Shown in pieces: positions 10,553-20,000 of a stretch of 20,000 nucleotides of DNA. Location of the stretch: IMG/VR virus record IMGVR_UViG_3300027707_000912. One strand, 5' to 3'. The DNA is from an uncultured virus (IMG/VR IMGVR_UViG_3300027707_000912). Its lineage: Duplodnaviria; Heunggongvirae; Uroviricota; Caudoviricetes. The first letter of the stretch is position 1. Each line of letters opens with the position of its first letter. The position numbers and the translations under genes were made by a program. Below the pieces are notes generated by a model, which saw only the letters and a list, made by a program, of their open reading frames with translations, ran no database searches and had not been told where the DNA came from.

Positions 10553-10621
10553 ATGAAAACGTATCAATTCATTGTAACAGTTTTAATTGTTATATTTGTT
10601 TTGGTACATGTTTTCATGTAA
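10553..10621 (+). CDS. 22-aa hydrophobic peptide MKTYQFIVTVLIVIFVLVHVFM
   Basis: AAGG RBS; same TAA-T-ATG junction; single TM helix ending just before the tmRNA. Confidence 0.55.
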   Translation: MKTYQFIVTVLIVIFVLVHVFM

Positions 10622-10624
10622 GGA

Positions 10625-10956
10625 ATTGTTGTAATCCCTTCAAAGTGAAGGCATTCTGGACGCGGGTTCGACTCCCGCCAGGTCCACCAAAAGGGCACTA
10701 CACCCCTCTTAATAATGGGCAACCTTGTAGTGCGTTTTTGATGGGCCTGCCATGGTTTCGACAGGGTGAGATAATAGAGACGGCAACACAGTAGGCGATG
10801 ACTGTAAATCAAGCAAAACTCGTAAATGCAAACGCAAATACATTCAAGTTTATGCAAGTTGACTTCGACATTTCAGCAATGAATGACGAAGAATTTGCAA
10901 TCGCAGCCTAAGAAACTGCACTTGCGAGGTAGTTATACCTTGTCACCAAAAATAGC
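10625..10956 (+). ncRNA. ssrA: Circularly permuted two-piece tmRNA; tag ANANTFKFMQVDFDISAMNDEEFAIAA
   Basis: T-arm GCGGG-TTCGACT-CCCGC and CAGGTCC-ACCA (to 10689) lie upstream of the 5' strand GGGCCTG (10743-10749), giving G3:U70. AGGGTG pairs with CATTCT. Tag ORF 10828-10911 ends in AIAA-stop. Outer ends approximate. Confidence 0.92.
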
Positions 10957-10983
10957 AGGAACCCGCTTTGGCGGGTTTCTTTT
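10957..10983 (+). terminator. Intrinsic terminator after tmRNA
   Basis: AGGAACCCGC-TTTG-GCGGGTTTCT-TTT. Confidence 0.85.
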
Positions 10984-11029
10984 GGGCTAATTACCTGTCA
11001 ATGAGTCCAAACTTTGGGCCCATTGAGTG

Positions 11030-16034: not shown

Positions 16035-16245
16035 TTGACACAACGACTAAATAAATGTATACTAGAGACTAGTTAGATAGTTGAGTAAATTCTTTTTGCC
16101 AAATGTGCAAATAGTGGTTGACACAGAGACTAAATAACTATACAATAAGAACATGCACAAGCAACTGCCTGTGTAAGCCGTTGTAGAAATACAACAAAGA
16201 AAGATTTCAAAAGTGGTTGACGAAGATGCTGAAAGGCATTATAAT
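16035..16245 (+). promoter_or_regulatory. Three tandem sigma70 promoters of the tRNA operon
   Basis: TTGACA-17-TATACT (16035-16063), TTGACA-17-TACAAT (16118-16146), TTGACG-17-TATAAT (16217-16245). The first two carry GACTAAATAA in the spacer. Confidence 0.85.
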
Positions 16246-16304
16246 TAACACAAGACACTAGCATTCCGCTAGTAAATTTTAAGAAGAGATAAACGAGAAA
16301 CAAA

Positions 16305-16451
16305 ATGCAATCAACTGTTAAACATCAACAATTTAATACGATGCCTAAACTGGCAGGTGTAATAGCCTGTTCTTGGTTATCGATTAATGGCGGAAGTTTA
16401 TCATATGATCGTACACCAGAGATTCGCAGGGTCCGGGAGACCGTAATGTAA
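16305..16451 (+). CDS. Putative attenuator leader peptide, 48 aa (MQSTVKHQQFNTMPKLAGVIACSWLSINGGSLSYDRTPEIRRVRETVM)
   Basis: Lies between the promoters and a terminator; its 3' end contains the antiterminator strand; weak GAG RBS. Confidence 0.65.
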   Translation: MQSTVKHQQFNTMPKLAGVIACSWLSINGGSLSYDRTPEIRRVRETVM

Positions 16452-16515
16452 GCTAAAGTTTACATAACAAACTTCAAGGACCCTAGGATTAAAAACCCTG
16501 GGGTTTTTTGTTTTT
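16428..16515 (+). terminator. Terminator/antiterminator switch upstream of the tRNA array
   Basis: Terminator AAGGACCCTAGG (16476-16487)/CCTGGGGTTTTT (16497-16508) plus T tract; competing pairing AGGGTCC (16428-16434)/GGACCCT (16478-16484). Confidence 0.75.
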
Positions 16516-16745
16516 AGACGCTGAGATTGCCAAGGCAGTCGTTGAAGCAAAGTGTGAAGATACCAGTAACGAGGACTGGGCTAGGCACTATAAACATCTA
16601 GCAAACGGGCGGCCTGTAGGATGAAGCACTTCTTCTAGTGTGAAAAATTACAGCGTATTAAAGCATATTCCGAAACTAGAATGTTTAGGGGATAAGGCCA
16701 CAAGCCGAGTATGCTTTAATACACGCATTGGAAACAGTGCGTTAA

Positions 16746-16832
16746 GGAGGATGTTCCCTATTGCCGGCTGTAACCCGGTAGGCATAATAAGTAGGGTGGC
16801 GCCAAGTGGTTCGATTCCATCATCCTCCACCA
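16746..16832 (+). tRNA. Atypical tRNA-Tyr(GTA)-like RNA, 8/4 fold, no canonical D-arm
   Basis: GGAGGATG/CATCCTCC-A-CCA; GCCGG-CTGTAAC-CCGGT; GTGG-TTCGATT-CCAT. Confidence 0.6.
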
Positions 16833-16837
16833 AATAT

Positions 16838-16914
16838 GTGGGTGTGCCGCTGAATGGTTAGGCTCCGGATTGCAAATCCGTTCCATGCAGGTTCGAGTCC
16901 TGTCACCCACTCCA
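16838..16914 (+). tRNA. tRNA-Cys(GCA)
   Basis: GTGGGTG/CACCCAC-T-CCA; loop TT-GCA-AA; U73. Confidence 0.9.
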
Positions 16915-16919
16915 AATTT

Positions 16920-16993
16920 TCCCGGATAATTAAATGGTATAATAATCGGCTGATAACCGGTCTTTGCAAGTTCGATTCTTGCTCTGGGAACCA
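16920..16993 (+). tRNA. tRNA-Ile(GAT)
   Basis: TCCCGGA/TCTGGGA-A-CCA; ATCGG-CTGATAA-CCGGT. Confidence 0.9.
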
Positions 16994-16997
16994 AGTT

Positions 16998-17056
16998 TAG
17001 GATAGCAACAGCAAACTCAAAAATTCTACTTTTAATGGAAAAAAGATGCTATCCTG
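16998..17056 (+). ncRNA. ACAGCAA element 1 with Lys(TTT) anticodon stem-loop
   Basis: AGGATAGCA/TGCTATCCT closing stem; TTCTA-CTTTTAA-TGGAA. Confidence 0.65.
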
Positions 17057-17064
17057 TTTTTTAC

Positions 17065-17139
17065 ACTGTCGTCGTCTAGTGGCTAGGACGCTACCCTTTC
17101 AAGGTGGAGAAGCGGGATCGATACCCGTCGACAGTACCA
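17065..17139 (+). tRNA. tRNA-Glu(TTC)
   Basis: ACTGTCG/CGACAGT-A-CCA; CTACC-CTTTCAA-GGTGG; T-loop ATCGATA. Confidence 0.88.
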
Positions 17140-17143
17140 ACAT

Positions 17144-17218
17144 GCCGTTGTAGCTCTCTGGGAGGGTAACTCGTTGTCTGCGAGACTTAGGTGGGTTCGA
17201 TTCCCATCAGCGGCGCCA
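17144..17218 (+). tRNA. tRNA-Asp(GTC)
   Basis: GCCGTTG/CAGCGGC-G-CCA; CTCG-TTGTCTG-CGAG with unusual U37. Confidence 0.82.
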
Positions 17219-17686: not shown

Positions 17687-17762
17687 GCTACTTTAGCTGA
17701 TGTGGTCATAGCGGCGGTCTGAAGAACCGTTGAACCAGGTTCGATCCCTGGAGGTAGCACCA
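17687..17762 (+). tRNA. tRNA-Phe(GAA) copy 1
   Basis: GCTACTT/AGGTAGC-A-CCA; GCGGT-CTGAAGA-ACCGT. Confidence 0.9.
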
Positions 17763-18075: not shown

Positions 18076-18150
18076 GGGGGTATAATTCAAAGGCTAGAAT
18101 AGCCGGCTTTTAACCGGTCTATCAGGGTTCGAGTCCCTGTGCCCCTACCA
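18076..18150 (+). tRNA. tRNA-Lys(TTT)
   Basis: GGGGGTA/TGCCCCT-A-CCA; GCCGG-CTTTTAA-CCGGT. Confidence 0.9.
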
Positions 18151-18228
18151 TATAAAAACACATTAGAAGCCTTCGTGACTGTAGGCAAGTAGGTCTCTAA
18201 GTCGTTTCCGACTAGTGTGTTTCTATAT

Positions 18229-18304
18229 GGTAACGTAGCATAGTGGCTAATGCACCACCTTCATACGGTGTTTATCGTGGGTTCGAGTCCCACCGTTACT
18301 ACCA
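18229..18304 (+). tRNA. tRNA with CAT anticodon (elongator Met or Ile2)
   Basis: GGTAACG/CGTTACT-A-CCA; CACC-TTCATAC-GGTG; lacks the initiator GGG/CCC pairs. Confidence 0.85.
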
Positions 18305-18307
18305 AGT

Positions 18308-18520
18308 TTTGTAAGTGTCAGCAAGAGAATGTCATGCTGTCTAGGTTTCTTCGAAGGACCGAAACAGTAGAAGGTGATGGGTTCAACTCCCAACCACTCG
18401 CAAGGGTGGTGTCTGTAACGGAGACAAACTGGACTAGTATCCCAAGTGACGTACCGAATCCCGCTCGAGCTTGTTAATTCGGGTGAATGGTTCCAATAAT
18501 GTGGTGGAACTACTTACAAA
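18308..18520 (+). ncRNA. About 213-nt multibranched structured RNA, unassigned
   Basis: Closing stem TTTGTAAGT/ACTTACAAA followed by CAGCAA; inner ATGTCAT/GTGACGT domain with TGGG-TTCAACT-CCCA and ACCACTC-GCAA-GGGTGGT. Confidence 0.65.
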
Positions 18521-18528
18521 TTCAATAT

Positions 18529-18775: not shown

Positions 18776-18849
18776 GTTGTTCCTAGTGTAGTGGTCGCAC
18801 AACTGTCTGTGAAACAGTTAGAGAGGGTTCGATTCCCCGGTCCAACCCA
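18776..18849 (+). tRNA. tRNA-His(GTG), degenerate or possible pseudogene
   Basis: ACTGT-CTGTGAA-ACAGT intact and G-1:C73 possible, but two acceptor-stem mismatches and a short T-stem. Confidence 0.55.
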
Positions 18850-18863
18850 ATGAATTTATCAAT

Positions 18864-19562
18864 TTAAATTTTAGATAGAATATGTTCAGCTATGTTCTGA
18901 TTAGTGTTGACACCACGGTGAGCTAAATCTCTAGCGAGATCATTCTCAATTATCCTAAAATTATGTAAATCTTCATATTCGATTTGAATTAACTTAATAT
19001 CTAGATTGTTACAGATATGCTGGATAGCTAATGTATTTTTAAAGAAATTCATTTCACTATTAGTATCATTTAGCACCCAGTTTTTCCAAATTTGATCTTT
19101 TGACCAAGGTCCGTAATCTTGTATTACAGAGTTATAATGACGTTCAAATCGATGACGAGATGTTGACAAGTGAACAACTATTTTCGGTTTAAGTTGCGAG
19201 AGCCAATAGTGAGCCATTCTGAATGCAGTGTCATTTGAAGATGAACCTATCCCTAAATTAAAATTTTTGAGATTTAGATTATTGCTCACAATACTAGCCC
19301 AGCAATTTTCGATAGGCAATCCAATGCCGCAAGTATAACTACAACCCAAAGATACCATACTAGGTTCGTTAGAAAATTCGTCACTTCTAAATCCGTAGCT
19401 ATTAAATTTATAGCTGAATTTTTTGTCTAGCCAACCAAACTTAACCATCTCGTCATATCTATTTGCTACGTTTTCAACATACAGCTCTTTAGTATCCATA
19501 GGTAACCATTCTAATGTTTGTTTGGCTTTCGTTGAATATTGGTGTAATATTTTATTGAACAT
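18864..19562 (-). CDS. Hypothetical protein, SGNH/GDSL-hydrolase-like, antisense within the tRNA array
   Basis: LGCSYTCG (block I-like), NLGIGSSSND (block II-like), DLAHRG (DxxH). Likely start MFNKIL at 19562, just after TAAATA. Confidence 0.7.
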   Translation of the reverse strand: MFNKILHQYSTKAKQTLEWLPMDTKELYVENVANRYDEMVKFGWLDKKFSYKFNSYGFRSDEFSNEPSMVSLGCSYTCGIGLPIENCWASIVSNNLNLKNFNLGIGSSSNDTAFRMAHYWLSQLKPKIVVHLSTSRHRFERHYNSVIQDYGPWSKDQIWKNWVLNDTNSEMNFFKNTLAIQHICNNLDIKLIQIEYEDLHNFRIIENDLARDLAHRGVNTNQNIAEHILSKI

Positions 19563-19606
19563 GCAAATATTTATTTGCACAACTAGTATAGGAAAATAAT
19601 TTTCAT

Positions 19607-19682
19607 GCTACTTTAGCTGATGTGGTCATAGCGGCGGTCTGAAGAATCGTTGAACCAGGTTCGATTCCTGGAGGTAGCACCA
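19607..19682 (+). tRNA. tRNA-Phe(GAA) copy 2
   Basis: Identical to 17687..17762 at 74 of 76 positions. Confidence 0.9.
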
Positions 19683-19989: not shown

Positions 19990-20000
19990 GGGTCGTTAGC
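19990..20000 (+). tRNA. 5' end of a further tRNA, truncated by the window
   Basis: GGGTCGT-TA-GC matches positions 1-11 of a tRNA. Confidence 0.45.

Follow-up and report, generated by a model that had tools for sequence, protein, structure and literature searches.

A conserved tRNA-Tyr-like gene of phage tRNA arrays with a predicted crossed-helix core in place of the D hairpin

The tRNA array of an uncultured freshwater phage opens with a tRNA-Tyr(GUA) gene in which the strands of the core are connected in an unusual order. The gene, here called rewired, covers 87 nt including an encoded CCA, at 16746..16832 (+) of the window, that is, the whole 20,000-nt stretch of DNA that was analyzed (IMG/VR record IMGVR_UViG_3300027707_000912). 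Judged by comparison of related sequences, five helices are kept with compensatory changes across the rewired family, and the gene is a real and widely conserved phage gene, not a decayed one-off. We put a probability of about 70% on the reading that it is a working elongator tRNA-Tyr(GUA) with a plan other than the cloverleaf, which would be an undescribed structural class.

From 5' to 3', the gene consists of an 8-nt acceptor strand, TT, CCCTAT, the anticodon arm, GGC, a 7-nt linker, GTAGGG, TGG, C, GCC, AA, the T arm, the 3' strand of the acceptor stem, the discriminator A, and CCA. The acceptor and anticodon stems are separated by only 9 nt. The elements are listed below with the support that each receives from the family of 127 sequences described later.

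16746..16753 (+), 5' strand of the acceptor stem, 8 nt; pairs with 16821-16828 (8/8 pairs with two-sided changes, 99.9% of cells paired, 127 sequences)
16754..16755 (+), TT linker in the place of positions 8-9 (TT in 117/127)
16756..16761 (+), strand A, CCCTAT; pairs with A' at 16791-16796 (6/6 pairs in 126/127; 59 double changes in each of the middle two pairs)
16762..16780 (+), anticodon arm: 6-bp stem (16762-16767/16775-16780), loop CTGTAAC, GTA at 16770-16772 (6/6 pairs covary, 98.7% of cells paired)
16781..16783 (+), strand B, GGC; pairs with B' at 16801-16803 as the putative variable-stem equivalent, crossing A-A' (3/3 pairs in 126/127)
16784..16790 (+), A/T-rich linker from B to A' (6-10 nt long across 86 sequences)
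16791..16796 (+), strand A', GTAGGG, within the variable region (same pairing evidence as strand A: 6/6 pairs in 126/127)
16797..16800 (+), TGG and the next base, the putative G18-G19 and position 20 of the D loop (TGG in 126/127)
16801..16803 (+), strand B', GCC (same pairing evidence as strand B: 3/3 pairs in 126/127)
16806..16820 (+), T arm: 4-bp stem GTGG/CCAT with a first pair G.T, loop TTCGATT at 16810-16816 (2/4 pairs with double changes, 90.9% of cells paired; TTCGATT in 101/127)
16821..16832 (+), 3' strand of the acceptor stem (16821-16828), discriminator A73 (16829) and encoded CCA (16830-16832) (A73 in 124/127, CCA in 117/127)

All the features given in an earlier note on this DNA lie where it placed them: the acceptor stem of 8 bp with A73-CCA, the T stem of 4 bp with its TTCGATT loop, and the anticodon arm with GTA. 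The 9 nt in the place of the D arm and their pairing with the downstream GTAGGG are also seen at the locus. The note regarded this pairing as an extension of the anticodon helix; the pairing holds for GTAGGG and needs correction at one base: T16762 pairs with A16780 to give a 6-bp anticodon stem, not with the A before GTAGGG, and the extra helix is 6 bp long. The following stretch, TGGCGCCA, had been recognized and left unexplained. It consists of the invariant TGG, a spacer, and GCC, and the GCC pairs with the GGC after the anticodon stem, crossing A-A'. The term 'D-armless' does not suit the gene, since it has a helix resembling a D stem as well as a GG motif, both supplied from the variable region.

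The relatives were collected as follows. An exact 17-mer from the anticodon arm matched 105 IMG/VR stretches; with the window's own record, 106 loci were checked, 64 of which fit the odd plan by the filter and 42 did not. The filtered-out loci are mostly ordinary tRNA-Tyr cloverleaves, with one divergent member (L017) among them. Further members were obtained with patterns that leave the anticodon arm, or the entire 5' half, free. The looser-pattern search gave 120 matches, nine of which were rejected by the filter; by eye, six of these have the same fold one base off register, one has a broken acceptor stem, and two are unrelated. The final family set comprises 127 distinct sequences of 86-92 nt, aligned with MAFFT and mostly derived from tRNA arrays of uncultured phages. 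The selection for this set imposed the 8/4 geometry and at least seven acceptor pairs, and the retention of U33 and of a purine at 37 was partly imposed by the search patterns.

The proposed structure is paired in 96.0% of 3429 cells over the 127 sequences, and 20 of its 27 pairs have changes on both sides. None of 500 shuffles matched the observed values on any of five measures, and pairing falls to 40-55% when the partner columns are slid by 1-3. Smaller alignments gave the same outcome for covariation. The A-A' helix (CCCTAT/GTAGGG) is paired in 99.9% of cells. The eighth acceptor pair is G-C in 108/127 and has a two-sided change in 19, the second pair of the T stem is non-standard in 18/127, and the T loops read TTCRAYT throughout the set. 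The B-B' helix should be noted: it is paired in only 79.3% of cells in the MAFFT columns of the 127-sequence set, a low value that comes solely from a subfamily with one additional base ahead of the T stem. When the parse allows for this extra base, all three pairs form in 126/127 sequences, compared with 46.6% when B is dealt among the sequences. The same helix is 95% paired in an alignment of 86 sequences, where the middle pair is seen as GC, CG, UA, AU, and UG. A covariance model of the nested part gives the members 65-104 bits and ordinary tRNAs at most 35 bits; the window's gene scores 98.6 bits with the model built from its relatives (model R1). These results bear out the earlier suggestion that the locus is a genuine, selected, non-canonical 8/4 tRNA-Tyr-like gene, in that its homologues share the fold with compensatory changes. 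A one-off decayed copy among normal cloverleaf homologues had been named beforehand as the refutation; the homologues found are not cloverleaves, and they covary.

The strands follow each other in the order A, B, A', B' (16756-61, 16781-83, 16791-96, 16801-03). They are interleaved and both helices covary, giving the topology of an H-type pseudoknot; that is, A-A' and B-B' cross. Since strand A is directly continuous with the 5' anticodon-stem strand, A-A' should be stacked on the anticodon stem, in the place of the D stem. By topology, strand A would correspond to the 3' strand of the D stem and A' to its 5' strand, so the helix would take the position of the D stem found in tRNA-Sec and allo-tRNAs. 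The invariant UGG after A' is proposed to act as G18-G19 at the elbow, and B-B' would sit where the stem of a class II variable arm begins and ends. The 5' strand and loop of the D arm would then have moved into the loop of the variable arm with the L shape retained, and the 8-bp acceptor stem stacked on the 4-bp T stem would keep the usual 12 bp. The window's copy has one base only between GG and B', and the elbow contact and the B-B' pairing may exclude each other there.

Standard models do not call this gene. ARAGORN finds 19 tRNAs in the 20,000-nt window and the Rfam tRNA model RF00005 gives 17 matches; none is located at 16746-16832, for Rfam even with E up to 10, and none is a Tyr tRNA, in agreement with the earlier statement that the window contains no canonical tRNA-Tyr. 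ARAGORN likewise makes no call for the rewired gene in 33/33 related loci. Membership of the four-arm cloverleaf families represented by RF00005 and ARAGORN was rejected for want of any call. The best Rfam match to the rewired gene is tRNA-Sec (RF01852), and this assignment was also rejected, with 24.5 bits and E = 0.012 against a gathering cut-off of 47 bits. If rewired RNAs are charged and used, tRNA finders under-count phage tRNA sets systematically, for instance in phages scored as lacking tRNA-Tyr.

Comparison with known systems places the gene near several of them. It shares with bacterial class II tRNA-Tyr the GUA anticodon, A73, G1-C72, an enlarged variable region with a helix at its base, and a length of 86-92 nt. 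It differs in having no D hairpin, in the 8/4 instead of 7/5 branch, and in the 6-bp anticodon stem, and its variable 'loop' gives one D-stem-like strand and GG, which makes it pseudoknotted. The class II cloverleaf was rejected, since the D hairpin is missing and the variable region pairs back to the 9 nt before the anticodon stem. The 8/4 allo-tRNAs and the phage 8/4 tRNA-Ser/His described by Mukai et al. (PMC5389517) have in common with it the 8/4 branch, the lengthened anticodon stem, and a tRNA-Sec-like long D-stem geometry, and the allo-tRNAs likewise occur in phage tRNA clusters and metagenomes (PMC5389517). The tRNA-Sec-like D arm of an allo-tRNA is described there as a long stem with a tetraloop (PMC5389517). 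Unlike the rewired gene, allo-tRNAs have a D hairpin with a tetraloop, and they have a normal variable hairpin and the Ser identity base G73 or U73 (PMC5389517). The rewired family has the 8/4 branch of the allo-tRNAs, and neither their D hairpin with tetraloop nor G73/U73 (A73 in 124/127). No Tyr member and no pseudoknot are named in the searched text of that paper (PMC5389517), the phage clusters of its Figure S2 being outside the text search.

The rewired gene resembles tRNA-Sec (RF01852) in its long acceptor stem and 6-bp anticodon stem; tRNA-Sec differs in having a 13-bp branch, a closed D hairpin, and a UCA anticodon. The A-A' helix followed by UGG presumably resembles the 6-bp D stem of tRNA-Sec followed by its U-G-G turn, a likeness that we take partly from the text of Mukai et al. 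The D-armless mitochondrial tRNA-Ser(AGY) also connects its acceptor and anticodon stems without a D hairpin. It drops the arm outright and is short, whereas the rewired gene is full-sized and has the helix and GG rebuilt from the variable region. The pseudoknot of the viral tRNA-like structures (TLS) of TYMV and BMV is in the acceptor arm. These TLS are similar to the rewired gene in that tRNA identity elements are encoded by a virus on a non-cloverleaf, pseudoknotted frame (PMC9976931). They form the 3' end of a plant virus genome and act outside protein synthesis (PMC9976931), whereas the rewired gene stands free in a tRNA array and its acceptor stem and anticodon loop are normal. The tRNA-Tyr of phages T5 and SP15, which escapes retron-Eco7 PtuAB, is likewise phage-encoded with a variable region unlike that of the host (PMC11555353, PMC12673091, PMC13096335). 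The T5 and SP15 molecules are ordinary cloverleaves with a longer variable loop and are resistant by experiment, whereas the resistance of the rewired gene is conjectured. Textbooks and recent papers describe all known bacterial tRNAs as cloverleaves (PMC11551756). The literature searched, which left most subscription journals outside, gave no tRNA whose variable region forms the D stem and no phage 8/4 tRNA-Tyr.

Several lines of evidence point to a working tRNA. The window's gene carries the Tyr set of GUA anticodon, A73, and G1-C72, and has all the sequence features of a functional tRNA, namely the 8+4 bp branch, the T loop, a 7-nt anticodon loop with U33, and A-CCA. Across the 127 sequences, A73 is found in 124, G1-C72 in 119, an encoded CCA in 117, and a GTA anticodon in 121; A73 and the bacterial G1-C72 are described as tyrosine identity elements (PMC9976931). 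The genomic context adds to this in two cases. A 383-kb phage genome (G003; CheckV 100% complete) has all its 39 Rfam tRNA matches in two regions, and its 41 ARAGORN tRNAs serve 19 amino acids with Tyr alone missing. Its rewired Tyr gene, at the 5' end of the array, fills the sole missing amino acid. Similarly, a 36-tRNA chromosomal array flanked by typical Planctomycete genes in a Pirellulales MAG lacks Tyr alone, and a rewired Tyr gene between tRNA-Glu and tRNA-Leu fills the gap.

A TyrRS domain (PF00579) was not found in 5/5 large contigs, so charging would be performed by the host enzyme. We suppose that the rewired tRNA would be cut from the array transcript, charged by host TyrRS through A73, G1-C72, and G34-U35-A36, and used to read UAY codons. 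Acceptance of a D-armless tRNA by the bacterial translation machinery has been described (PMC11551756). Contigs from RNA libraries cover the rewired gene in 4/4 metatranscriptome libraries (one, for example, spans 16475-17145), and these contigs carry no end, strand, or level information. The coverage is weak evidence, compatible with transcription and also with DNA carry-over. It should be noted that a canonical tRNA-Tyr is also present within 20 kb in 4/5 large contigs, suggesting that the rewired copy is usually redundant for decoding. One of these contigs (G006), a close relative of the window's phage, has it approximately 5.9 kb downstream of the rewired copy, and by that comparison the window's phage probably has a canonical tRNA-Tyr just past position 20000.

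The scaffold is not restricted to Tyr. A Tyr-only scaffold was considered when the first anticodon-free pattern gave GTA in 64/64, and was abandoned when a looser pattern and a pattern excluding G34 then found Arg and Ile members. The G34-excluding pattern gave nine loci in IMG/VR, five with Arg(UCU) and four with Ile(UAU). On metagenome contigs it gave at least 120 loci, at least 114 of which passed the filter, and among the matches listed these G34-excluded members represent at least 56 distinct sequences (46 UCU, 1 ACG, and 9 UAU). The rewired Arg(UCU) is the sole UCU tRNA in two complete phage genomes with terminal repeats; the remaining Arg tRNAs of the first are CCU, UCG, and ACG, and that of the second is ACG.

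The base after TGG varies with the anticodon. Among the matches listed, it is A in 49/49 distinct Arg members, which have 16 different acceptor strands, and T in 9/9 Ile members (A in 0/9); it is A in only 10/121 Tyr members. A viral Arg member outside the count of 49 (L450) also has A at this position. A20 of the D loop is described as the main determinant for ArgRS (PMC9976931). The Arg-linked A after TGG matches A20, and this correlation within the alignments supports the reading of TGG as G18-G19 and recognition by a synthetase. No array was found to hold a second rewired tRNA; there is one per array in 55 arrays.

Other unusual tRNAs occur in these arrays. In a complete 161-kb phage genome (G010), ARAGORN reports a tRNA with the amber-reading anticodon CTA, labeled 'tRNA-Pyl', at L447 1286-1362 in an array with a rewired Arg(UCU); it may be a suppressor tRNA. 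A 92-nt tRNA-Ile(UAU) recurs in arrays at L303 2716-2807 (-), L058 2076-2167 (+), L445 11850-11941 (+), L026 877-968 (-), and L442 11406-11497 (+). The copies at L303, L058, and L445 are of one sequence type, and their MFE cloverleaf combines a tetraloop D arm and a 7-bp anticodon stem with a long variable arm like that of class II, which is unusual for Ile.

The window's stretch is present in 20 public runs from 16 studies, described as freshwater, lake water, and viral or crustacean metagenomes; six of the runs are RNA libraries. A search of the genomes of 185,579 species with the strict pattern gave 17 matches, of which only two Planctomycete arrays contain members. Both Planctomycete MAGs with the rewired gene also have a normal tRNA-Tyr in a housekeeping Thr-Tyr-Gly-Thr cluster, so that the rewired form is a feature of the accessory array and not the host type. 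On these two MAGs and the strict-pattern matches, the idea that the host's own tRNA-Tyr has this fold was rejected. The accessory array of the Pirellulales MAG (L307 3344-8079) is dense, with 35 tRNAs and a 36th at 11.6 kb, and that of a Planctomycetaceae MAG (L308 1-3753) has at least 22 tRNAs, in both cases in addition to scattered housekeeping tRNAs. The inspected genes of these two arrays have no encoded CCA.

Among cultured phages, a blastn search of 50,697 phage records with 4 of the 127 sequences gave no member. The best match, in Aeromonas phage 25, is a different, 7/5 tRNA-Tyr-like gene with 23.9 bits by the family model and was rejected. This gene of a T4-like phage (L315 2495-2564; NC_008208.1, approximately 64.47-64.57 kb) is unannotated and lies under a 'hypothetical protein' CDS in a tRNA region. 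It has a GTA anticodon and a 7/5 branch, its variable hairpin is short, and GG is missing from its D region.

The possibility that the gene is a decayed tRNA-Tyr pseudogene agrees with its rejection by standard finders. It is refuted in practice, with a residual chance that we consider negligible, by the number and spread of the members: 127 distinct sequences, in which every helix shows compensatory changes, come from phage contigs, many metagenomes, and two Planctomycete chromosomes. It is also highly improbable that the true fold is a different one, either the MFE register or a cloverleaf formed after processing, with the proposed helices being by-products of relatedness. The MFE of the window's copy does have another register of the central hairpin (-30.7 compared with -28.5 kcal/mol for the model), and the z-score of this copy is only -1.9. 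However, that register is paired in 70.6% across the family and its pair 19-37 is unpaired in 84/127, whereas the anticodon stem of the model is 98.7% paired with 6/6 pairs covarying and the slid controls reach 40-55%. The MFE register of the central hairpin was ruled out on these family data, and a D hairpin is impossible from nine bases. Charging with an amino acid other than tyrosine, if the rewired core and A73 made the RNA a substrate of LeuRS or another synthetase, with recoding of UAY codons, has in our estimation a similarly slight chance. The class II identities (Tyr, Leu, and Ser) are close and can be switched through tertiary elements (PMC9976931), and the core is unlike that of any tested TyrRS substrate; against this, the major Tyr determinants GUA, A73, and G1-C72 are kept, and Tyr is exactly what two otherwise complete sets lack.

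The remaining alternative, raised in the earlier note as a mimic or decoy, deserves more weight, though we judge it unlikely. A tRNA-Tyr look-alike would occupy a host nuclease directed at tRNA-Tyr, or another tRNA-binding defence protein, and would not be used by the ribosome. Decoding needs no rewired copy where a canonical phage tRNA-Tyr lies alongside, which is usual (4/5 large contigs), and overexpressed tRNA-Tyr neutralizes PtuAB toxicity, while the variable loop of SP15 tRNA-Tyr is required to block retron-Eco7 (both PMC12673091). The frequent first position in the array, noted earlier for the window and found in 22/33 related loci, also suits such a role. A decoy, however, has no need for the strictly kept A73, CCA, 12-bp acceptor/T branch, and 7-nt anticodon loop, and every feature required for charging and for EF-Tu is kept. 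The rewired gene is, moreover, the sole Tyr tRNA in one complete phage genome and one chromosomal array, filling the only empty amino-acid slot in these two otherwise complete sets. The Arg and Ile anticodons on the same scaffold, with an Arg-specific A20-like base, further point to synthetase recognition. A functional elongator tRNA is the reading that we prefer.

As to why an elongator tRNA should have such a core, a poor fit to host tRNA-directed defence nucleases such as PtuAB/Septu is our leading guess, with the odds somewhat against it. In tRNA-Tyr the variable arm is the site of cleavage by PtuAB and Septu (PMC12673091, PMC13096335), the tRNA-Tyr of phage SP15 with its longer variable loop is uncut and requires the loop for its protective effect (PMC12673091), and phage tRNAs are an established means of counter-defence (PMC11555353). 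A tRNA-Tyr with its variable region buried in the core would plausibly fit this picture of nuclease evasion. The Arg and Ile anticodons on the same scaffold, on the other hand, weaken a Tyr-specific form of the explanation. An alternative explanation may be neutral drift in arrays freed of some host constraints.

A broader proposal is that the rewired tRNAs form a third class of elongator tRNA beside classes I and II, with a strand-swapped, pseudoknotted core accepted by bacterial TyrRS, ArgRS, IleRS, EF-Tu, and ribosomes, and that they occur almost only in phage and mobile arrays because this core is invisible to host nucleases that recognize the normal D-arm, variable-arm, and elbow region. 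We regard this combination as rather doubtful. What the alignments do provide is a tRNA core wired in another way, kept in hundreds of natural sequences and with at least three amino-acid specificities as judged from the anticodons. If the rewired tRNAs are charged and used, the L shape is reachable by more than one secondary structure in bacterial systems. They would then offer a natural scaffold for synthetic biology that may be orthogonal to host enzymes, and the arms race between phages and tRNA nucleases could be tested with a radically remodeled substrate.

The neighborhood of the gene in the window includes an rIIA-like gene, a probable rIIB, and a permuted tmRNA, and the tRNA array starts at 16746. 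The two-piece permuted tmRNA at 10573-11002 (+) has 140.6 bits with Rfam tmRNA_permuted, and the tag peptide predicted by ARAGORN is unusually long (ANANTFKFMQVDFDISAMNDEEFAIAA). Approximately 230 nt upstream of the array, in the region 16035-16515 (+), there are three tandem sigma-70-like promoters (16035, 16118, and 16217; 11/12 matches each), a 48-aa ORF at 16306-16451 (+), and then a hairpin with a T run at about 16478-16515. The depth of RNA-library contigs is very high at 16272-16538. The region 16035-16515 looks like a leader or attenuator before the tRNA array.

Further members of the window's array deviate from the standard plan as well. The rewired tRNA-Tyr is followed after 5 nt by a tRNA-Cys(GCA) at 16838-16911 (+), which has 44.4 bits by Rfam and no ARAGORN call. 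The tRNA-His(GTG) at 18776-18848 (+) reaches only 35.3 bits and seems to have an irregular acceptor stem. The array also has a gap of 225 nt at 18305-18528 (+), in which there is neither a tRNA call nor an Rfam match at E up to 1. The bin 18141-18407, which overlaps the gap and includes a tRNA-Met, has the highest depth of RNA-library contigs, with the same loose end at 18392 in 4/4 runs; the gap may hold a small RNA of a new kind. A 238-aa ORF at 18864-19580 (-) has no Pfam match. This ORF may have been inserted as a mobile element, in the manner of the homing endonuclease genes of T4-type tRNA regions, and it lies inside the array between near-identical copies of tRNA-Phe at 17687-17762 and 19607-19682, with joints of RNA-library contigs around it.
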